Source of the DNA: Giardia intestinalis
Taxonomy: Eukaryota
DNA: 9,026 bases
Assembly: GCA_000002435.2 (NCBI GenBank)
Contig: AACB03000012.1
Strand: one strand, 5' to 3'
Within the stretch, counting starts at the first letter, position 1. Every line of letters starts with the position of its first letter. The notes beneath the pieces were generated by a model that searched no databases, was not told the origin of the DNA, and was given only the letters and a program-made list of their open reading frames with translations. Position numbers and translations under genes: made by a program. Below are positions 1 through 9,026 of this stretch, piece after piece.

Positions 1-1146
1 TGTCTGTTTGATTAATTCGTTAGCAGAGGTAGACACATGTGGAGCAGGTTGGTGAGGAGCCAGTTCCTTGAGAGTCTGTTCTGGTCGAGGTTGTTCGCAA
101 GAAGGAGTTCTAGACCTCTTAGAAGAGTGCATAACTAAAGAGTCCGATGGGCTATGGGTTTCCTCATAGGTCTCCTCCGGCTGCTCCGCCAGTAAGTCGC
201 ACGTTTCAAATTCGTCTAGCTGACCTTCGCAACCAGGCTCATCCGGAAAATCTAACGGTTTATGTGCCCGTTTAATCGTGGATCGCGACAGGGTAATAAC
301 GTGAGCTGGACTGGCGGGCTGAGGACAGAAACCTTTCGAGGAATCGCTAGATAGTAAACCCGGCTCTCTGGCAGTAGCGAATGTCATAGTGACCTCTGGA
401 ACCATAGTGCTCTGAGCTGAATTTGGTCTGGAGAGCTGAGTAGTAGAAGATACTGCTGGTGTTTCAGAGATGTCCATCAAGCTGCTGAGTACTGTTGTAT
501 GGTCCTGGAGTGGTTTATCAAACGACTTGCTTTCTAAATTAATAGTATTAATAGTTGATGGGTCAGCAAGAAAGTTTCGATGATGTGGATTTTCAACCAC
601 GTGAGAATCAGCTGCAAATGTCAAAATCATCTGAGTTACAGTTACATCTTCGTCTAGTGTACTTTCAGTAGAGCTTCTTGATTGGACAGAAGAGCTTTCC
701 TTAGAACCTAAAGTAGTAGAGGATAGAACTTGAGGATGCTCACCAGCGTTTTCCTGGGCAATTGATGAATACTGATCTTGAGAATTTTGTTTAGGCACTT
801 CATTGGAAGAATGCTTGATTAAAAATGAAGACTCGTGAGTTAAGGGCCTAGATAACGAATTTTCTTCTGCCTTATTTTGTGAATGCATAAAGTTCTCAAT
901 CAAAATATCGTAAGAAGTATCTCCATTACCATAAACATCTGTATTTAGCAAAGTATCCTCACACACCGTGTCTTCTGCCAAGGGCTTCTTTTGGTTTGTT
1001 CTCGATGCATCGGTAGGTTTTAATTTCCGTAAAGGTGGAAGGGATGATAAGGAATACGTTAGAACAAGCTCACTAACAGGTACATCTTCATTATCACAAG
1101 CTGGAGTAAGTACTCCCTCATGTATATCGTTAACTACAAGAAGGTC
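1..1146 (-). CDS. Non-repetitive, S/T/E/D-rich segment of a large repetitive protein. It looks disordered and matches no domain I recognise. It lies C-terminal to the repeat domain, and the frame continues past position 1 with no stop in the window.
   Basis: The minus-strand frame using plus triplets 1-3, 4-6 and onward contains no TTA, CTA or TCA triplet across all 382 codons from 1146 to 1, so no stop. I checked this twice by hand. The same phase on the plus strand is loaded with TAA, TAG and TGA. The translation, read 5' to 3' on the minus strand, begins DLLVVNDIHEGVLTPACDNEDVPVSELVLTYSLSSPSTLRKLKPTDASRTNQKKPLAEDTVCEDTLLNTDVYGNGDTSYDILIENFMHSQNKAEENSLSRPLTHESSFLIKHSSNEVPKQNSQDQYSSIAQENAGEHPQVLSSTTLGSKESSSVQSRSSTESTLDEDVTVTQMILTFAADSHVVENPHHRNFLADPSTINTINLESKSFDKPLQDHTTVLSSLMDISETPAVSSTTQLSRPNSAQSTMVPEVTMTFATAREPGLLSSDSSKGFCPQPASPAHVITLSRSTIKRAHKPLDFPDEPGCEGQLDEFETCDLLAEQPEETYEETHSPSDSLVMHSSKRSRTPSCEQPRPEQTLKELAPHQPAPHVSTSANELIKQT. 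The chance of a stop-free run this long arising by accident is about 1e-8. Confidence 0.7.
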
Positions 1147-4100
1147 TTCGACGGGCTCCGCGGGCTCTGCAAGGCGTGCCTCCTCGGGCTCCTCAACGGG
1201 CGCTTCAGGTTCTTCGACGGGCTCCGCGGGGTCTGCAAGGCGTGCCTCCTCGGGCTCCTCAACGGGCGCTTCAGGTTCTTCGACGGGCTCCGCGGGGTCT
1301 GCAAGGCGTGCCTCCTCGGGCTCCTCAACGGGCGCTTCAGGTTCTTCGACGGGCTCCGCGGGGTCTGCAAGGCGTGCCTCCTCGGGCTCCTCAACGGGCG
1401 CTTCAGGTTCTTCGACGGGCTCCGCGGGGTCTGCAAGGCGTGCCTCCTCGGGCTCCTCAACGGGCGCTTCAGGTTCTTCGACGGGCGCCTCTTGCTGCTC
1501 GGGTTCTTCGACGGGCTCCGCGGGCTCTGCAAGGCGTGCCTCCTCGGGCTCCTCAACGGGCGCTTCAGGTTCTTCGACGGGCTCCGCGGGCTCTGCAAGG
1601 CGTGCCTCCTCGGGCTCCTCAACGGGCGCTTCAGGTTCTTCGACGGGCTCCGCGGGGTCTGCAAGGCGTGCCTCCTCGGGCTCCTCAACGGGCGCTTCAG
1701 GTTCTTCGACGGGCGCCTCTTGCTGCTCGGGTTCTTCGACGGGCTCCGCGGGGTCTGCAAGGCGTGCCTCCTCGGGCTCCTCAACGGGCGCTTCAGGTTC
1801 TTCGACGGGCGCCTCTTGCTGCTCGGGTTCTTCGACGGGCTCCGCGGGGTCTGCAAGGCGTGCCTCCTCGGGCTCCTCAACGGGCGCTTCAGGTTCTTCG
1901 ACGGGCTCCGCGGGGTCTGCAAGGCGTGCCTCCTCGGGCTCCTCAACGGGCGCTTCAGGTTCTTCGACGGGCTCCGCGGGGTCTGCAAGGCGTGCCTCCT
2001 CGGGCTCCTCAACGGGCGCTTCAGGTTCTTCGACGGGCTCCGCGGGCTCTGCAAGGCGTGCCTCCTCGGGCTCCTCAACGGGCGCTTCAGGTTCTTCGAC
2101 GGGCTCCGCGGGGTCTGCAAGGCGTGCCTCCTCGGGCTCCTCAACGGGCGCTTCAGGTTCTTCGACGGGCTCCGCGGGGTCTGCAAGGCGTGCCTCCTCG
2201 GGCTCCTCAACGGGCGCTTCAGGTTCTTCGACGGGCTCCGCGGGGTCTGCAAGGCGTGCCTCCTCGGGCTCCTCAACGGGCGCTTCAGGTTCTTCGACGG
2301 GCTCCGCGGGCTCTGCAAGGCGTGCCTCCTCGGGCTCCTCAACGGGCGCTTCAGGTTCTTCGACGGGCTCCGCGGGCTCTGCAAGGCGTGCCTCCTCGGG
2401 CTCCTCAACGGGCGCTTCAGGTTCTTCGACGGGCTCCGCGGGCTCTGCAAGGCGTGCCTCCTCGGGCTCCTCAACGGGCGCTTCAGGTTCTTCGACGGGC
2501 TCCGCGGGCTCTGCAAGGCGTGCCTCCTCGGGCTCCTCAACGGGCGCTTCAGGTTCTTCGACGGGCTCCGCGGGTCTGCAAGGCGTGCCTCCTCGGGCTC
2601 CTCAACGGGCGCTTCAGGTTCTTCGACGGGCGCCTCTTGCTGCTCGGGTTCTTCGACGGGCTCCGCGGGCTCTGCAAGGCGTGCCTCCTCGGGCTCCTCA
2701 ACGGGCGCTTCAGGTTCTTCGACGGGCTCCGCGGGCTCTGCAAGGCGTGCCTCCTCGGGCTCCTCAACGGGCGCTTCAGGTTCTTCGACGGGCGCCTCTT
2801 GCTGCTCGGGTTCTTCGACGGGCTCCGCGGGTCTGCAAGGCGTGCCTCCTCGGGCTCCTCAACGGGCGCTTCAGGTTCTTCGACGGGCTCCGCGGGGTCT
2901 GCAAGGCGTGCCTCCTCGGGCTCCTCAACGGGCGCTTCAGGTTCTTCGACGGGCTCTGCAAGGCGTGCCTCCTCGGGCTCCTCAACGGGCGCTTCAGGTT
3001 CTTCGACGGGCTCCGCGGGCTCTGCAAGGCGTGCCTCCTCGGGCTCCTCAACGGGCGCTTCAGGTTCTTCGACGGGCTCCGCGGGCTCTGCAAGGCGTGC
3101 CTCCTCGGGCTCCTCAACGGGCGCTTCAGGTTCTTCGACGGGCTCCGCGGGCTCTGCAAGGCGTGCCTCCTCGGGCTCCTCAACGGGCGCTTCAGGTTCT
3201 TCGACGGGCGCCTCTTGCTGCTCGGGTTCTTCGACGGGCTCCGCGGGGTCTGCAAGGCGTGCCTCCTCGGGCTCCTCAACGGGCGCTTCAGGTTCTTCGA
3301 CGGGCTCCGCGGGGTCTGCAAGGCGTGCCTCCTCGGGCTCCTCAACGGGCGCTTCAGGTTCTTCGACGGGCTCCGCGGGGTCTGCAAGGCGTGCCTCCTC
3401 GGGCTCCTCAACGGGCGCTTCAGGTTCTTCGACGGGCTCCGCGGGGTCTGCAAGGCGTGCCTCCTCGGGCTCCTCAACGGGCGCTTCAGGTTCTTCGACG
3501 GGCTCTGCAAGGCGTGCCTCCTCGGGCTCCTCAACGGGCGCTTCAGGTTCTTCGACGGGCTCCGCGGGCTCTGCAAGGCGTGCCTCCTCGGGCTCCTCAA
3601 CGGGCGCTTCAGGTTCTTCGACGGGCGCCTCTTGCTGCTCGGGTTCTTCGACGGGCTCCGCGGGCTCTGCAAGGCGTGCCTCCTCGGGCTCCTCAACGGG
3701 CGCTTCAGGTTCTTCGACGGGCGCCTCTTGCTGCTCGGGTTCTTCGACGGGCTCCGCGGGGTCTGCAAGGCGTGCCTCCTCGGGCTCCTCAACGGGCGCT
3801 TCAGGTTCTTCGACGGGCTCCGCGGGCTCTGCAAGGCGTGCCTCCTCGGGCTCCTCAACGGGCGCTTCAGGTTCTTCGACGGGCGCCTCTTGCTGCTCGG
3901 GTTCTTCGACGGGCTCCGCGGGCTCTGCAAGGCGTGCCTCCTCGGGCTCCTCAACGGGCGCTTCAGGTTCTTCGACGGGCTCCGCGGGGTCTGCAAGGCG
4001 TGCCTCCTCGGGCTCCTCAACGGGCGCTTCAGGTTCTTCGACGGGCGCCTCTTGCTGCTCGGGTTCTTCGACGGGCTCCGCGGGGTCTGCAAGGCGTGCC

Positions 4101-7100
4101 TCCTCGGGCTCCTCAACGGGCGCTTCAGGTTCTTCGACGGGCTCCGCGGGCTCTGCAAGGCGTGCCTCCTCGGGCTCCTCAACGGGCGCTTCAGGTTCTT
4201 CGACGGGCTCCGCGGGCTCTGCAAGGCGTGCCTCCTCGGGCTCCTCAACGGGCGCTTCAGGTTCTTCGACGGGCTCCGCGGGCTCTGCAAGGCGTGCCTC
4301 CTCGGGCTCCTCAACGGGCGCTTCAGGTTCTTCGACGGGCGCCTCTTGCTGCTCGGGTTCTTCGACGGGCTCCGCGGGGTCTGCAAGGCGTGCCTCCTCG
4401 GGCTCCTCAACGGGCGCTTCAGGTTCTTCGACGGGCTCCGCGGGCTCTGCAAGGCGTGCCTCCTCGGGCTCCTCAACGGGCGCTTCAGGTTCTTCGACGG
4501 GCTCCGCGGGCTCTGCAAGGCGTGCCTCCTCGGGCTCCTCAACGGGCGCTTCAGGTTCTTCGACGGGCTCTGCAAGGCGTGCCTCCTCGGGCTCCTCAAC
4601 GGGCGCTTCAGGTTCTTCGACGGGCTCCGCGGGCTCTGCAAGGCGTGCCTCCTCGGGCTCCTCAACGGGCGCTTCAGGTTCTTCGACGGGCTCTGCAAGG
4701 CGTGCCTCCTCGGGCTCCTCAACGGGCGCTTCAGGTTCTTCGACGGGCTCCGCGGGCTCTGCAAGGCGTGCCTCCTCGGGCTCCTCAACGGGCGCTTCAG
4801 GTTCTTCGACGGGCTCTGCAAGGCGTGCCTCCTCGGGCTCCTCAACGGGCGCTTCAGGTTCTTCGACGGGCTCTGCAAGGCGTGCCTCCTCGGGCTCCTC
4901 AACGGGCGCTTCAGGTTCTTCGACGGGCTCCGCGGGCTCTGCAAGGCGTGCCTCCTCGGGCTCCTCAACGGGCGCTTCAGGTTCTTCGACGGGCTCTGCA
5001 AGGCGTGCCTCCTCGGGCTCCTCAACGGGCGCTTCAGGTTCTTCGACGGGCTCCGCGGGCTCTGCAAGGCGTGCCTCCTCGGGCTCCTCAACGGGCGCTT
5101 CAGGTTCTTCGACGGGCTCTGCAAGGCGTGCCTCCTCGGGCTCCTCAACGGGCGCTTCAGGTTCTTCGACGGGCTCCGCGGGCTCTGCAAGGCGTGCCTC
5201 CTCGGGCTCCTCAACGGGCGCTTCAGGTTCTTCGACGGGCTCTGCAAGGCGTGCCTCCTCGGGCTCCTCAACGGGCGCTTCAGGTTCTTCGACGGGCTCC
5301 GCGGGCTCTGCAAGGCGTGCCTCCTCGGGCTCCTCAACGGGCGCTTCAGGTTCTTCGACGGGCTCCGCGGGCTCTGCAAGGCGTGCCTCCTCGGGCTCCT
5401 CAACGGGCGCTTCAGGTTCTTCGACGGGCTCCGCGGGCTCTGCAAGGCGTGCCTCCTCGGGCTCCTCAACGGGCGCTTCAGGTTCTTCGACGGGCTCCGC
5501 GGGGTCTGCAAGGCGTGCCTCCTCGGGCTCCTCAACGGGCGCTTCAGGTTCTTCGACGGGCGCCTCTTGCTGCTCGGGTTCTTCGACGGGCTCCGCGGGG
5601 TCTGCAAGGCGTGCCTCCTCGGGCTCCTCAACGGGCGCTTCAGGTTCTTCGACGGGCTCCGCGGGGTCTGCAAGGCGTGCCTCCTCGGGCTCCTCAACGG
5701 GCGCTTCAGGTTCTTCGACGGGCTCCGCGGGGTCTGCAAGGCGTGCCTCCTCGGGCTCCTCAACGGGCGCTTCAGGTTCTTCGACGGGCGCCTCTTGCTG
5801 CTCGGGTTCTTCGACGGGCTCCGCGGGCTCTGCAAGGCGTGCCTCCTCGGGCTCCTCAACGGGCGCTTCAGGTTCTTCGACGGGCTCCGCGGGCTCTGCA
5901 AGGCGTGCCTCCTCGGGCTCCTCAACGGGCGCTTCAGGTTCTTCGACGGGCGCCTCTTGCTGCTCGGGTTCTTCGACGGGCTCCGCGGGCTCTGCAAGGC
6001 GTGCCTCCTCGGGCTCCTCAACGGGCGCTTCAGGTTCTTCGACGGGCTCCGCGGGGTCTGCAAGGCGTGCCTCCTCGGGCTCCTCAACGGGCGCTTCAGG
6101 TTCTTCGACGGGCGCCTCTTGCTGCTCGGGTTCTTCGACGGGCTCCGCGGGGTCTGCAAGGCGTGCCTCCTCGGGCTCCTCAACGGGCGCTTCAGGTTCT
6201 TCGACGGGCGCCTCTTGCTGCTCGGGTTCTTCGACGGGCTCCGCGGGCTCTGCAAGGCGTGCCTCCTCGGGCTCCTCAACGGGCGCTTCAGGTTCTTCGA
6301 CGGGCTCCGCGGGCTCTGCAAGGCGTGCCTCCTCGGGCTCCTCAACGGGCGCTTCAGGTTCTTCGACGGGCTCCGCGGGGTCTGCAAGGCGTGCCTCCTC
6401 GGGCTCCTCAACGGGCGCTTCAGGTTCTTCGACGGGCTCCGCGGGCTCTGCAAGGCGTGCCTCCTCGGGCTCCTCAACGGGCGCTTCAGGTTCTTCGACG
6501 GGCTCCGCGGGGTCTGCAAGGCGTGCCTCCTCGGGCTCCTCAACGGGCGCTTCAGGTTCTTCGACGGGCGCCTCTTGCTGCTCGGGTTCTTCGACGGGCT
6601 CCGCGGGCTCTGCAAGGCGTGCCTCCTCGGGCTCCTCAACGGGCGCTTCAGGTTCTTCGACGGGCTCCGCGGGGTCTGCAAGGCGTGCCTCCTCGGGCTC
6701 CTCAACGGGCGCTTCAGGTTCTTCGACGGGCTCCGCGGGGTCTGCAAGGCGTGCCTCCTCGGGCTCCTCAACGGGCGCTTCAGGTTCTTCGACGGGCTCC
6801 GCGGGGTCTGCAAGGCGTGCCTCCTCGGGCTCCTCAACGGGCGCTTCAGGTTCTTCGACGGGCGCCTCTTGCTGCTCGGGTTCTTCGACGGGCTCCGCGG
6901 GCTCTGCAAGGCGTGCCTCCTCGGGCTCCTCAACGGGCGCTTCAGGTTCTTCGACGGGCTCCGCGGGCTCTGCAAGGCGTGCCTCCTCGGGCTCCTCAAC
7001 GGGCGCTTCAGGTTCTTCGACGGGCTCCGCGGGGTCTGCAAGGCGTGCCTCCTCGGGCTCCTCAACGGGCGCTTCAGGTTCTTCGACGGGCTCCGCGGGG

Positions 7101-9026
7101 TCTGCAAGGCGTGCCTCCTCGGGCTCCTCAACGGGCGCTTCAGGTTCTTCGACGGGCTCCGCGGGGTCTGCAAGGCGTGCCTCCTCGGGCTCCTCAACGG
7201 GCGCTTCAGGTTCTTCGACGGGCGCCTCTTGCTGCTCGGGTTCTTCGACGGGCTCCGCGGGCTCTGCAAGGCGTGCCTCCTCGGGCTCCTCAACGGGCGC
7301 TTCAGGTTCTTCGACGGGCTCCGCGGGCTCTGCAAGGCGTGCCTCCTCGGGCTCCTCAACGGGCGCTTCAGGTTCTTCGACGGGCGCCTCTTGCTGCTCG
7401 GGTTCTTCGACGGGCTCCGCGGGGTCTGCAAGGCGTGCCTCCTCGGGCTCCTCAACGGGCGCTTCAGGTTCTTCGACGGGCGCCTCTTGCTGCTCGGGTT
7501 CTTCGACGGGCTCCGCGGGGTCTGCAAGGCGTGCCTCCTCGGGCTCCTCAACGGGCGCTTCAGGTTCTTCGACGGGCGCCTCTTGCTGCTCGGGTTCTTC
7601 GACGGGCTCCGCGGGGTCTGCAAGGCGTGCCTCCTCGGGCTCCTCAACGGGCGCTTCAGGTTCTTCGACGGGCGCCTCTTGCTGCTCGGGTTCTTCGACG
7701 GGCTCCGCGGGGTCTGCAAGGCGTGCCTCCTCGGGCTCCTCAACGGGCGCTTCAGGTTCTTCGACGGGCGCCTCTTGCTGCTCGGGTTCTTCGACGGGCT
7801 CCGCGGGGTCTGCAAGGCGTGCCTCCTCGGGCTCCTCAACGGGCGCTTCAGGTTCTTCGACGGGCGCCTCTTGCTGCTCGGGTTCTTCGACGGGCTCCGC
7901 GGGCTCTGCAAGGCGTGCCTCCTCGGGCTCCTCAACGGGCGCTTCAGGTTCTTCGACGGGCTCCGCGGGCTCTGCAAGGCGTGCCTCCTCGGGCTCCTCA
8001 ACGGGCGCTTCAGGTTCTTCGACGGGCTCCGCGGGGTCTGCAAGGCGTGCCTCCTCGGGCTCCTCAACGGGCGCTTCAGGTTCTTCGACGGGCTCCGCGG
8101 GGTCTGCAAGGCGTGCCTCCTCGGGCTCCTCAACGGGCGCTTCAGGTTCTTCGACGGGCTCCGCGGGGTCTGCAAGGCGTGCCTCCTCGGGCTCCTCAAC
8201 GGGCGCTTCAGGTTCTTCGACGGGCGCCTCTTGCTGCTCGGGTTCTTCGACGGGCTCCGCGGGGTCTGCAAGGCGTGCCTCCTCGGGCTCCTCAACGGGC
8301 GCTTCAGGTTCTTCGACGGGCGCCTCTTGCTGCTCGGGTTCTTCGACGGGCTCCGCGGGGTCTGCAAGGCGTGCCTCCTCGGGCTCCTCAACGGGCGCTT
8401 CAGGTTCTTCGACGGGCGCCTCTTGCTGCTCGGGTTCTTCGACGGGCTCCGCGGGGTCTGCAAGGCGTGCCTCCTCGGGCTCCTCAACGGGCGCTTCAGG
8501 TTCTTCGACGGGCGCCTCTTGCTGCTCGGGTTCTTCGACGGGCTCCGCGGGGTCTGCAAGGCGTGCCTCCTCGGGCTCCTCAACGGGCGCTTCAGGTTCT
8601 TCGACGGGCGCCTCTTGCTGCTCGGGTTCTTCGACGGGCTCCGCGGGTCTGCAAGGCGTGCCTCCTCGGGCTCCTCAACGGGCGCTTCAGGTTCTTCGAC
8701 GGGCTCCGCGGGGTCTGCAAGGCGTGCCTCCTCGGGCTCCTCAACGGGCGCTTCAGGTTCTTCGACGGGCTCCGCGGGGTCTGCAAGGCGTGCCTCCTCG
8801 GGCTCCTCAACGGGCGCTTCAGGTTCTTCGACGGCGCCTCTTGCTGCTCGGGTTCTTCGACGGGCTCCGCGGGGTCTGCAAGGCGTGCCTCCTCGGGCTC
8901 CTCAACGGGCGCTTCAGGTTCTTCGACGGGCGCTCTTGCTGCTCGGTTCTTCGACGGGCTCCGCGGGTCTGCAAGGCGTGCCTCCTCGGGCTCCTCAACG
9001 GGCGCTTCAGGTTCTTCGACGGGCGC
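1147..9026 (-). CDS. Repeat domain of the same protein, read in the acidic frame: (EEPEAPVEEPEEARLA[E/D]PAEPV)n, with 32-aa units inserting EEPEQQEAPV and 19-aa units lacking AEP. It is N-terminal to the flank segment. The true start lies beyond position 9026. The frame is broken in this assembly by single-base homopolymer indels.
   Basis: The reverse complement of the unit, read in phase with the stop-free flank frame, gives codons CCT GAA GCG CCC GTT GAG GAG CCC GAG GAG GCA CGC CTT GCA GAG CCC GCG GAG CCC GTC GAA GAA, with no stop and no ATG, GTG, TTG or CTG. All unit variants differ by multiples of 3 (66, 96 and 57 bp), which is the pattern of selection on a reading frame. Frame continuity with the flank holds up to the first indel at 2572-2575. 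Beyond that point continuity requires the indels to be errors. Confidence 0.5.
2572..2575. other. Single-base deletion in a homopolymer (CGCGGGTCTG where CGCGGGGTCTG or CGCGGGCTCTG is expected). It shifts the frame.
   Basis: I compared it directly with flanking units. This is where the track ORF 1134..2540 ends and ORF 2549..2767 begins. Confidence 0.9.
2829..2832. other. Single-base deletion in a homopolymer (G4 to G3) that shifts the frame.
   Basis: GGCTCCGCGGGTCTGCAAGG at 2821-2840 compared with the canonical unit. This indel bounds the 1935-aa track ORF. Confidence 0.9.
4558..5352. repeat. Higher-order repeat block in which 57-bp and 66-bp units alternate as a 123-bp super-unit. The order is S C S C S S C S C S C S C, and every canonical unit here carries the C allele (CGCGGGCTCTG).
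   Basis: I traced the unit boundaries by hand: short units at 4558, 4681, 4804, 4861, 4984, 5107 and 5230, with canonical units between them. Only two other short units occur in the window (about 2950 and about 3501). Confidence 0.8.
7375..7950. repeat. Run of six consecutive 96-bp variant units.
   Basis: GCGCCTCTTGC recurs at exactly 96-bp spacing (7384, 7480, 7576, 7672, 7768, 7864). The first five units carry the G allele. Confidence 0.85.
8215..8693. repeat. Run of five consecutive 96-bp variant units. The last one carries the single-base deletion at 8645-8648.
   Basis: Insert motifs lie at 8224, 8320, 8416, 8512 and 8608, at 96-bp spacing. Long units dominate the high-coordinate end of the array, which is the N-terminal-proximal end of the minus-strand gene. 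Confidence 0.85.
8645..8648. other. Single-base deletion in a homopolymer (G4 to G3) that shifts the frame.
   Basis: CCGCGGGTCT at 8641-8650. This indel bounds the 1935-aa track ORF on its upstream side. Confidence 0.9.
8831..8968. other. Cluster of four more single-base homopolymer contractions: ACGGCGCC at about 8833 (G3 to G2), GGGCGCTCTTG at about 8933 (CC to C), CTCGGTTC at about 8945 (G3 to G2), and CCGCGGGTCT at about 8965 (G4 to G3).
   Basis: I compared each against the consensus unit. Five of the seven indels in the window fall in the final 200 bp, which suggests degraded base quality at a contig or read end. Confidence 0.85.

Follow-up and report, generated by a model that had tools for sequence, protein, structure and literature searches.

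The window, a 9,026-nucleotide stretch of Giardia intestinalis assemblage A1 (WB-type) DNA, covers part of one gene on the minus strand, in which the flank at 1-1140 lies C-terminal to a long tandem repeat. The following features can be delineated:

1..1140, minus strand: unique coding sequence adjoining the repeat on its C-terminal side, a stop-free, Ser/Thr-rich frame of 380 codons
886..888, minus strand: first in-frame ATG past the array, the start of the RefSeq model
1141..1152, minus strand: last, truncated repeat unit (GTCGAAGACCTT), where the array meets the flank, ..PVE/DLLVVNDIH (in assemblage E, ..PVE/ELLVANDIH; the slash marks the border)
1141..2562, minus strand: array portion (~22 units) that shares an uninterrupted VEEPEAP frame with the flank
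2563..9026, minus strand: remaining array, made of units A-D, with the VEEP frame shifted by seven one-base deletions; exits the window
2563..2627, minus strand: 65-nt unit with a frameshift (CCCC to CCC)
2820..2884, minus strand: 65-nt unit with, likewise, a CCCC to CCC deletion
8636..9020, minus strand: five one-base homopolymer deletions, clustered near the window end and spread over four units (8636-8700, 8833-8861, 8928-8955 with two deletions, and 8956-9020)

The flank is clearly coding: its 380 codons contain no stop, compared with 16-34 stops in each of the other five frames, and it aligns to the assemblage E sequence without indels, with a dN/dS of 0.27 at a dS of approximately 0.4. 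A non-coding flank, which the initial annotation had allowed for, is incompatible with these observations. Codons 85-380 of the flank are 100% identical to residues 1-296 of the WB "mucin-like protein" (XP_001704184.1 / KAE8302722.1). The gene was identified by an exhaustive HMMER search; a word-index protein search with the flank missed even the identical protein, and two further word-index searches for orthologues returned only the P15 (assemblage E) orthologue and a fragment, with no orthologue from assemblage B or G. muris. The open reading frame of the flank exits the window at base 1, and about 900 further codons are found in other contigs. In an A2-type contig and in the P15 contig, the gene is one continuous ORF that consists of an N-terminal part of 830-840 amino acids, the repeat, and a C-terminal part of 1280 amino acids. 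The two adjacent RefSeq "mucin-like protein" models of WB are the halves of this one gene; in RefSeq, the gene is split and carries only about 5.5 repeat units. Three independent RNA-seq contigs start precisely at base 888, the ATG of the RefSeq model, suggesting that in WB the C-terminal part may be expressed as a separate transcript, which counts against the interpretation favored below.

Neither the flank nor the repeat matched any Pfam domain, nor did the full-length orthologues, and a PDB sequence search with the conserved N-terminal domain yielded no meaningful match. In the single-sequence AlphaFold model of this domain (pLDDT 39), moderate confidence is confined to a long helical hairpin (residues 55-164). 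There was no match in a blastn comparison with plasmids and phages, and scans for related loci in prokaryotic genomes, IMG/VR and JGI metagenomes found no relatives. The protein accessions are mentioned in no paper found, and the long-read Giardia papers checked do not discuss the locus. Jointly with the origin of the array proposed below, it is likely that the gene product is a very large, fast-evolving, mostly disordered, Giardia-specific protein.

Organization and length of the repeat array

In the region 1141-9026, units of 66, 57 and 30 nt are repeated in tandem; they encode the peptides VEEPEAPVEEPEEARLA(D/E)PAEP and VEEPEQQEAP, and all unit lengths are multiples of three. The 139 units represent only four true sequence types, namely A (66 nt), B (66 nt, with a single C/G difference that leads to D/E), C (30 nt) and D (57 nt), and are arranged in higher-order blocks, e.g., (CA)n and (BD)n. 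The initial annotation described the first unit at 1141 as nearly consensus, and it is indeed a truncated consensus unit. The main unit comprises 22 codons, is rich in Glu, Pro, Ala and Val, and is present in more than 100 copies. In this assembly, the array spans at least 7.9 kb and encodes at least ~2,625 residues, which carry a net charge of about -967; the amino acid composition is E 39%, P 22%, A 17% and V 9%, R, L, Q and D each contribute 2-4%, and S and T are absent. The diagnostic tryptic peptide of the repeat is LA[D/E]PAEPVEEPEAPVEEPEEAR. The unit shows no hairpin propensity, and its dimer folds worse than shuffled sequences (z = +2.4 and +1.4), which led to the rejection of hairpin-driven expansion.

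The repeat and the flank were initially assigned to the same ORF. This assignment holds for 1141-2562; further on, the VEEP frame is broken by the seven deletions, and these one-base homopolymer deletions, probably long-read errors, are its sole interruptions past 2562. Owing to these frameshifts, the window as written contains no single intact ORF, which counts against the interpretation favored below. The listed 1935-aa ORF at 2776-8583 is misleading, as it represents the alternative open frame (RSPSKN...) instead of the repeat protein.

Long-read assembly could have generated most of the length and uniformity of the array, with the ~0.4 kb RefSeq array representing the true locus. The RefSeq protein XP_037901788.1, which can be rebuilt from the units in the window, consists of the N-terminus, about 5.5 units, a frameshift and the border in the wrong frame (..SKTFL-stop); the homopolymer deletions cluster toward the window end; and Xu et al. 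describe PacBio homopolymer frameshifts as well as small Canu contigs, obtained from unmapped reads, that are "enriched with repeats" (PMC7000408). However, assemblers collapse arrays more commonly than they expand them, and for this array collapse is to be expected in every assembly built from short, 454 or Sanger reads; the A, B, C and D units follow a non-random higher-order pattern that resembles real sequence; and the compositional step discussed below is independent of copy number. An assembly artefact therefore appears to be an improbable explanation, and it is the RefSeq reference array that seems to be collapsed and frameshifted. The RefSeq chromosome model implies just ~5.5 units, which also counts against the interpretation favored below, and the length seen here is therefore to be read as resolved in this contig only, allele-specific, or in part a product of assembly. 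If the long array is real, the protein is among the largest in Giardia and is possibly length-variable.

Base composition of the array

The GC content is 0.43 in 1-1140 and 0.69 in 1141-9026, close to the 40-50% and ~70% stated initially, and the border is as abrupt as claimed: between the adjacent 30-nt blocks at 1140/1141, GC rises from 0.37 to 0.70. Across 7,838 windows of 22 codons in the host gene and nine genes nearby, GC stays below 0.69 throughout, so that the step exceeds chance. What does not stand is the claim that the repeat uses almost only G/C-ending codons: its GC3 is 0.64, and GAA accounts for 37% of the Glu codons, GCA for 47% of Ala, GTT for 45% of Val, and CTT for 100% of Leu.

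Most of the step lies elsewhere in the codon. The GC1/2/3 values are 0.99/0.45/0.64 in the array and 0.51/0.44/0.34 in the flank, such that about 60% of the jump comes from the first codon positions, i.e., from amino acid composition, with GC2 unchanged; GC1 is close to 1 because each amino acid in the unit can be encoded by a codon beginning with G or C. Recoding the repeat peptide with the codon usage of the host gene already gives a GC of 0.57-0.60. Thus, of the proposed recent amplification from a GC-rich, not yet ameliorated seed, the seed is not needed to account for the composition. The AT and TA dinucleotides are absent from all of 1141-9026, as originally noted, but this is not an independent signal, being a property of one 66-nt and one 30-nt unit. 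The G/C-starting codons remove all potential AT/TA sites except those that depend on five codon choices, and the absence of both dinucleotides has a probability of ~0.10-0.13 given the peptide and the codon usage of the host gene; it is also found in ~5% of unit shuffles.

The synonymous part of the jump (GC3 of 0.64 vs 0.34-0.37, at a locus with an average GC of ~0.46) rests on only 22-32 founder codons, copied approximately 100-fold. For unit A, 14 of the 22 third positions are G or C vs 8.2-9.8 expected (P = 0.01 with the host gene and 0.05 with the nine neighbouring genes as reference); for units A and C combined, the excess has P = 0.0015 and 0.016, respectively. A GC3 of at least 14/22 occurs in 7.7% of the local 22-codon windows. 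The array GC3 also falls within the genome-wide GC3s range reported for Giardia (26-99%), where mean GC3 is 51.7% (PMC8393687). Bimodal codon usage across the genome, the other circumstance that could have deprived the discontinuity of significance, is at odds with the same survey, in which gene GC content is unimodal and GC3s is broadly distributed.

Orthologous repeats and evolution of the array

At the same site, the orthologue from P15 (assemblage E) carries a related repeat with a 48/57-nt unit (VEEQPAEQPEAPIEEP), a GC of 0.655 and a GC3 of 0.64. The borders, ..SSLP[A/T]KKQ and PVE[D/E]LLV[V/A]NDIH, are shared by A1, A2 and E, and the comparison of orthologues suggested initially thus shows that both A2 and E carry a related repeat. 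The presence in assemblage E of a related GC-rich repeat with conserved borders indicates that the repeat is old rather than foreign. A foreign or chimeric origin, for instance from a GC-rich gut bacterium, draws on the GC of 0.69 within a locus that averages ~0.46 and on gut Clostridia MAGs that encode PEAPVEEPEAPVEEP linkers, one of which includes a 46-nt stretch with 89% identity. However, the matched peptide is of low complexity and differs in its period (8 aa), and the loci were pre-selected for the motif; the GC excess is mostly a matter of amino acid composition; and the repeat is in frame at the same position in A1, A2 and E, contrary to the absence from relatives expected of horizontally acquired sequence. 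A scan for the core motif across 185,579 prokaryotic species genomes, JGI metagenomes and IMG/VR found no array and no donor homologue, just single, isolated matches, attributable to chance, to the core pattern of 22 nt, of which 19 are fully specified. Foreign origin, one of the possibilities raised initially, is accordingly highly improbable.

The copies within a lineage are more alike than copies from different lineages: every one of the 106 long A1 units has CCT where each of the four observable A2 units has CCC, with the flanks 99.2% identical, and assemblage E has a different unit. These patterns support recent amplification or homogenization of the array. The different mutational history originally attributed to the repeat is therefore upheld in part, that is, for recent amplification, which is also reflected in the four unit types.

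The locus is most likely a coding minisatellite within one gene, whose composition over 7.9 kb is dictated by the amino acids and founder codons of the amplified unit. A short unit, in frame and rich in Glu, Pro, Ala and Val, would have undergone amplification within the host gene, with uniformity maintained by unequal recombination or replication slippage, a form of concerted evolution. When a single unit is copied more than 100 times, its amino acid make-up and a few founder codon choices fix the composition of the entire 7.9 kb; the compositional step would be a near-mechanical outcome of such multiplication. The repeat domain itself could serve as an extended acidic spacer.

The nominally significant GC3 excess relative to the host gene (units A and C), common to the A and E lineages, counts against this explanation and indicates that a directional force, namely biased conversion or selection for G/C-ending codons, may contribute. 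GC-biased gene conversion, the third possibility raised initially, or selection for G/C-ending optimal codons, would hold the GC3 of the array above that of the host gene. Such a force would fit the GC3 of 0.64 in the A and E arrays alike vs 0.36-0.38 elsewhere in the gene, the P values of 0.0015-0.016, the recombination evident from the uniformity of the units, and the reported optimal codons of Giardia, 26 of 26 of which end in G or C (PMC8393687). However, the effective sample is just 22-32 codons, and those common to A and E are shared by descent. In a hand alignment, 2 of the 13 same-amino-acid codons of the repeat differ between A and E, matching the flank rate of 0.21 (P = 0.45), and additional synonymous constraint on the repeat core is thus unsupported. 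The A-E divergence (dS) is too short for GC3 decay to be informative. GC3 is lower in the flanks adjoining the array (0.24-0.35) than elsewhere in the gene, which means that it shows no regional gradient. The sole array-wide substitution seen, CCT in A1 vs CCC in A2, may have occurred in either direction. A directional force of this kind is a rather unlikely explanation.

A more dynamic scenario, which we consider doubtful, is a hypervariable coding minisatellite with a ~20-fold length range (~0.4 kb to at least 7.9 kb) among alleles, nuclei or clones of one isolate, with GC3 raised by biased conversion during frequent intra-array recombination; the protein would exceed 4,700 aa and include an acidic spacer of ~2,600 residues. 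If true, a length-variable array with biased conversion would offer a rare opportunity to study recombination in an organism that is tetraploid and putatively asexual. Under the favored coding minisatellite explanation, the locus is of small importance as a compositional anomaly, the GC jump being real but ordinary. The wider implications are that amplification of one short unit can mimic a "foreign" signature and that, for GC and dinucleotide statistics on tandem arrays, the effective sample is one unit.

Comparison with known systems

The "mucin-like" name is ill-suited to a repeat without Ser or Thr. Mucin (PTS) repeats are rich in Pro, Thr and Ser and carry O-glycans; here, only the flanks are Ser/Thr-rich, and the Giardia repeat, with its extremely acidic unit, is not a mucin PTS domain. 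No hydrophobic stretch was seen by eye at the N-terminus (MRTGGRSRPQAVLRSSTPKTD..).

The E-rich and PEVK segments of titin and the acidic projection domains of MAPs are long, disordered repeats with abundant Pro, Glu and Val and units of ~20-30 residues, and are expected to act as extended polyelectrolyte spacers or entropic springs. The Giardia repeat resembles them in its length, disorder and composition, which may point to a functional analogy; unlike them, it lacks Lys, and it shows no sequence homology to them and has no known cytoskeletal context. The EP procyclins of Trypanosoma brucei, another parasitic protist, are small, GPI-anchored surface proteins with an acidic, Glu-Pro-rich dipeptide repeat. 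Glu-Pro-rich acidic repeats are common to both, but the Giardia unit is 22 aa long, the protein exceeds 4,700 aa, and no signal sequence was seen by eye. Bacterial acidic linkers of the PEAPVEEP type (e.g., at the Intestinimonas MAG locus) share the short motif and the GC-rich coding sequence, yet have an 8-aa period, few copies and unrelated host proteins; this likeness is best read as convergent low complexity.

Close parallels are also found in coding minisatellites, or VNTR domains, such as those of human MUC1, Cryptosporidium gp900 and the Plasmodium repeat antigens. These likewise consist of head-to-tail, near-identical units with lengths that are multiples of three, differ between closely related lineages in the number and sequence of their units, with borders and flanks conserved, and have their composition set by one short unit.

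Architecture and reading frame of the array

According to Tandem Repeats Finder, the region has a period of 66 nt throughout, and cutting the minus strand at GTCGAAGA yields 139 units, among which there are only four true sequence types.

Repeat units of the array (1141-9026, minus strand)
Unit A: 66 nt, 50 copies
Unit B: 66 nt, 43 copies; one C/G change relative to A, resulting in Asp or Glu
Unit C: 30 nt, 30 copies
Unit D: 57 nt, 9 copies
Six further units: A or C with one or two single-base deletions
Truncated unit: 12 nt, at the array/flank border

Across 1141-9026, the units form higher-order blocks (alternating C-A runs, B-D runs and AAAB-type groups), a sign that several units may have been duplicated together rather than one by one. 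On the non-coding plus strand, each 66-nt unit contains four runs of at least three G (GGG, GGGG, GGG, GGG) separated by loops of 6-20 nt, a sequence pattern compatible with a possible long-loop G-quadruplex that could influence replication and array stability. The unit shows no hairpin propensity, its single-stranded DNA folding worse than shuffled sequences.

The plus strand contains 16-34 stops per frame in 1-1131, and one minus-strand frame is stop-free from 2601 down to base 1. This frame encodes (VEEPEAPVEEPEEARLA[D/E]PAEP)n, with VEEPEQQEAP inserted at times, and runs on unbroken through a unique, Ser/Thr-rich stretch of 380 codons; therefore, the gene is on the minus strand and the flank (1-1140) follows the repeat on its C-terminal side. 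The flank is indeed coding, given that its alignment with the assemblage E orthologue (1,139 nt) is gapless, with 52, 35 and 88 differences at the three codon positions and a dN/dS of 0.27. The single ORF proposed in the initial annotation holds in part: the frame is open from the array through the flank (2601 to 1), but within the array the VEEP frame is broken by seven deletions of one base, each in a run of C or G; four of them are the identical change of CCCC to CCC.

Deletion-bearing units (minus strand)
2563-2627
2820-2884
8636-8700
8833-8861
8928-8955 (two deletions)
8956-9020

The last 400 nt of the window contain five of the seven deletions (8636-9020). Such clustering of homopolymer deletions near a contig end is typical of long-read consensus errors. 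Because the unit lacks TA and, on the plus strand, TGA, stops are absent from five of the six frames over most of the array. A 1935-aa ORF called by a mechanical ORF finder (2776-8583) was rejected as the repeat protein, being an alternative open frame (RSPSKN...), and the deposited partial protein DHA2_153816 likewise starts in the wrong, alternative frame.

One further feature of the flank may concern transcription.

886-888, minus strand: the first ATG in frame downstream of the array, where the flank is richest in AT

Assemblies of three WB1B trophozoite RNA-seq runs (SRR2642195, SRR2642197 and SRR2642199) all have their position 1 exactly at window base 888. Transcription of the part encoding the C-terminal 1193 aa may start internally here, or the assembly graph may branch at this point, e.g., at an antisense poly(A) site.

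Identity of the gene and its models in the reference genome

Nothing matched the flank in Pfam, by word-index protein search, by blastn with plasmids and phages as targets, or in scans for related loci in prokaryotic genomes and viral contigs. An exhaustive HMMER search produced a single strong match, P0001, a 'mucin-like protein' of Giardia intestinalis WB C6 (XP_001704184.1, KAE8302722.1, A8BYJ8), with 100% identity over flank residues 85-380. Further proteins in its 90% cluster reveal the entire gene. P0010, encoded on an A2-type ENA metagenome contig (L004), is a single 2178-aa ORF in which three collapsed repeat units separate N-terminal (~830 aa) and C-terminal (~1280 aa) parts. In P0005 (KAE8302723.1/XP_037901788.1), also named 'mucin-like protein', the N-terminal part is followed by a small number of units and then by a tail in a shifted frame. 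This tail could be rebuilt from units of the window: a frameshifted unit A followed by B and the border sequence gives ..ADPRSPSKNLKRPLRSPRRHALQSPRSPSKTFL*, exactly the end of P0005. Therefore, the array in the RefSeq chromosome, as implied by the model, contains only ~5.5 units (~0.36 kb) and a frameshift, compared with at least 139 units (at least 7.9 kb) in the window, and the adjacent models make up a single gene, XP_037901788.1 being its N-terminal and XP_001704184.1 its C-terminal half. The Giardia reference paper reports PacBio homopolymer frameshifts as well as small Canu contigs from unmapped reads that are 'enriched with repeats' (PMC7000408); the window fits the latter description and may be such a contig. 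This problem of gene model and array length in the Giardia reference is the most useful by-product of the analysis. Given that the repeat contains neither Ser nor Thr, the label 'mucin-like' is unfit for it.

Source of the compositional step

The abrupt GC discontinuity noticed in the initial annotation is real. In 200-nt windows, GC is 0.36-0.50 up to ~base 1100 and 0.68-0.70 from ~1200 on, and the change from 0.37 to 0.70 occurs between adjoining 30-nt blocks (1111-1140 and 1141-1170). The reported lack of AT and TA dinucleotides is equally accurate, with none, and no N, from 1141 to the window end.

GC content by codon position
Flank: GC1 0.51, GC2 0.44, GC3 0.34
Array: GC1 0.99, GC2 0.45, GC3 0.64

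First positions account for ~0.16 (61%) of the 0.27 rise in GC, second positions for almost nothing and third positions for 0.10 (37%). The array GC1 is close to 1 because the unit encodes only E, P, A, V, D and Q, together with Arg as CGC and Leu as CTT; when the repeat peptide is recoded with the codon usage of the non-repeat parts of the host gene, GC already reaches 0.57-0.60. AT and TA are missing because all codons begin with G or C, so that these dinucleotides could arise only within GTA, CTA, TTA or GAT, which concerns two or three codons for Val and one each for Leu and Asp; under host usage, the chance of escaping all such codons is 0.10-0.13, and ~5% of unit shuffles also lack both AT and TA. 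The description of the array as using almost only G/C-ending codons is overstated, considering the counts of GAA and GAG (67 vs 115), GCA and GCG (40 vs 44), GTT and GTC (20 vs 24), and CCT and CCC (21 vs 88), with CTT encoding all Leu. Thus, the compositional step is real, yet largely a mechanical outcome of amplifying one short unit.

There is also a synonymous component. Unit A has a GC3 of 14/22, whereas the codon usage of the host gene predicts 8.2 (P = 0.01) and that of nine neighbouring genes 9.8 (P = 0.05). Against the same two references, units A and C combined (21/32) give P = 0.0015 and 0.016. Among all 22-codon windows of the host and neighbouring genes, 7.7% have a GC3 of at least 14/22 and none reaches the total GC of 0.69. 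GC3 is ~0.37 in the host gene outside the repeat, and 0.42-0.54 (A2 contig) and 0.36-0.44 (assemblage E isolate P15) in neighbouring genes. Genome-wide, GC1/2/3 in Giardia are 53.4/41.8/51.7%, GC3s ranges from 26 to 99%, and every optimal codon has G or C in third position (PMC8393687). Gene GC content is described as unimodal (PMC8393687), which speaks against the bimodal codon usage that would undercut the contrast. The array GC3 lies slightly over the genome mean and that of the host gene at the low end; the difference between the two is real but based on very few independent codons. GC-biased conversion, another of the explanations initially put forward, may be a hypothetical, minor contributor to the step. 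The 100-codon blocks on both sides of the array have the lowest GC3 of the gene (0.24-0.35), so that what shapes the array, of whatever kind, does not extend into its surroundings.

Origin and homogenisation of the repeat

The P15 orthologue (P0011, 2207 aa, 82-84% identical) carries a repeat at the matching site, bordered by ..SSLP[A/T]KKQ on the N-terminal side and PVE[D/E]LLV[V/A]NDIH on the C-terminal side. Its unit is distinct yet related (VEEQPAEQPEAPIEEP, at times followed by EEP; 48 or 57 nt), has the DNA cores GAGGCGCCC and GAGGAGCCCGTCGAAGAAC in common with the WB unit, and has nearly the composition of the WB array (GC 0.655; GC1/2/3 0.93/0.40/0.64). This GC-rich repeat is therefore older than the split of assemblages A and E (dS ~0.4) and is not a recent foreign insertion. 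When the A and E units were aligned by hand, 2 of the 13 codons for the same amino acid differed synonymously, matching the flank rate of 0.21 (P = 0.45), and hence there is no sign of extra constraint.

The foreign origin entertained initially is not upheld by searches for the repeat itself either. A 22-nt core (19 fully specified bases) common to A and E units matched 72 times in 185,579 prokaryotic species genomes, 83 times in metagenome contigs and once in viral contigs, each time as a lone occurrence, mostly in GC-rich taxa. The best blastn match of an A-C-A unit string to all the pattern-bearing loci, which were pre-selected for the motif, spans 46 nt at 89% identity and comes from a gut Intestinimonas MAG (L156 ~677-722) that encodes a (PEAPVEEP)n linker. 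Two more Clostridia MAGs, from ruminant gut, encode similar acidic PEAPVEEP/EEAPVEEP tandem linkers (L125 ~5900-6500; L102 ~7100-7700). The resemblance of these linkers to the Giardia unit core is probably convergent low complexity, and it shows that acidic peptides of this kind are GC-rich in whatever genome.

Recent amplification, in contrast, survives as an explanation. The flanks of this array (A1) and of A2 are 99.2% identical, yet GAA-CCT-GAA is present in 106/106 long A1 units and GAA-CCC-GAA in all four observable A2 units (L004 12497-12694); the unit adjoining the border is B in A1 and C in A2. This contrast is direct evidence of recent, array-wide homogenisation after a very recent split. 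The best-supported scenario is that one short in-frame unit would have been amplified and would still be undergoing homogenisation, by unequal recombination or slippage.

The N-terminal ~400-450 residues of the gene product (L004 10001-11350; L005, the P15 contig, 10001-11370) are strongly conserved between A and E (dN/dS of 0.09 over 395 codons) and have no relative in Pfam or PDB. A single-sequence AlphaFold model of this region is poor overall, although a long helical hairpin in it is predicted with moderate confidence; the region looks like an uncharacterised Giardia-specific domain. The encoded repeat domain, at least ~2,625 residues long, is 39% Glu and 22% Pro and carries a net charge of ~-967, and we infer, by analogy with PEVK-type segments, that it is presumably an extended acidic spacer.
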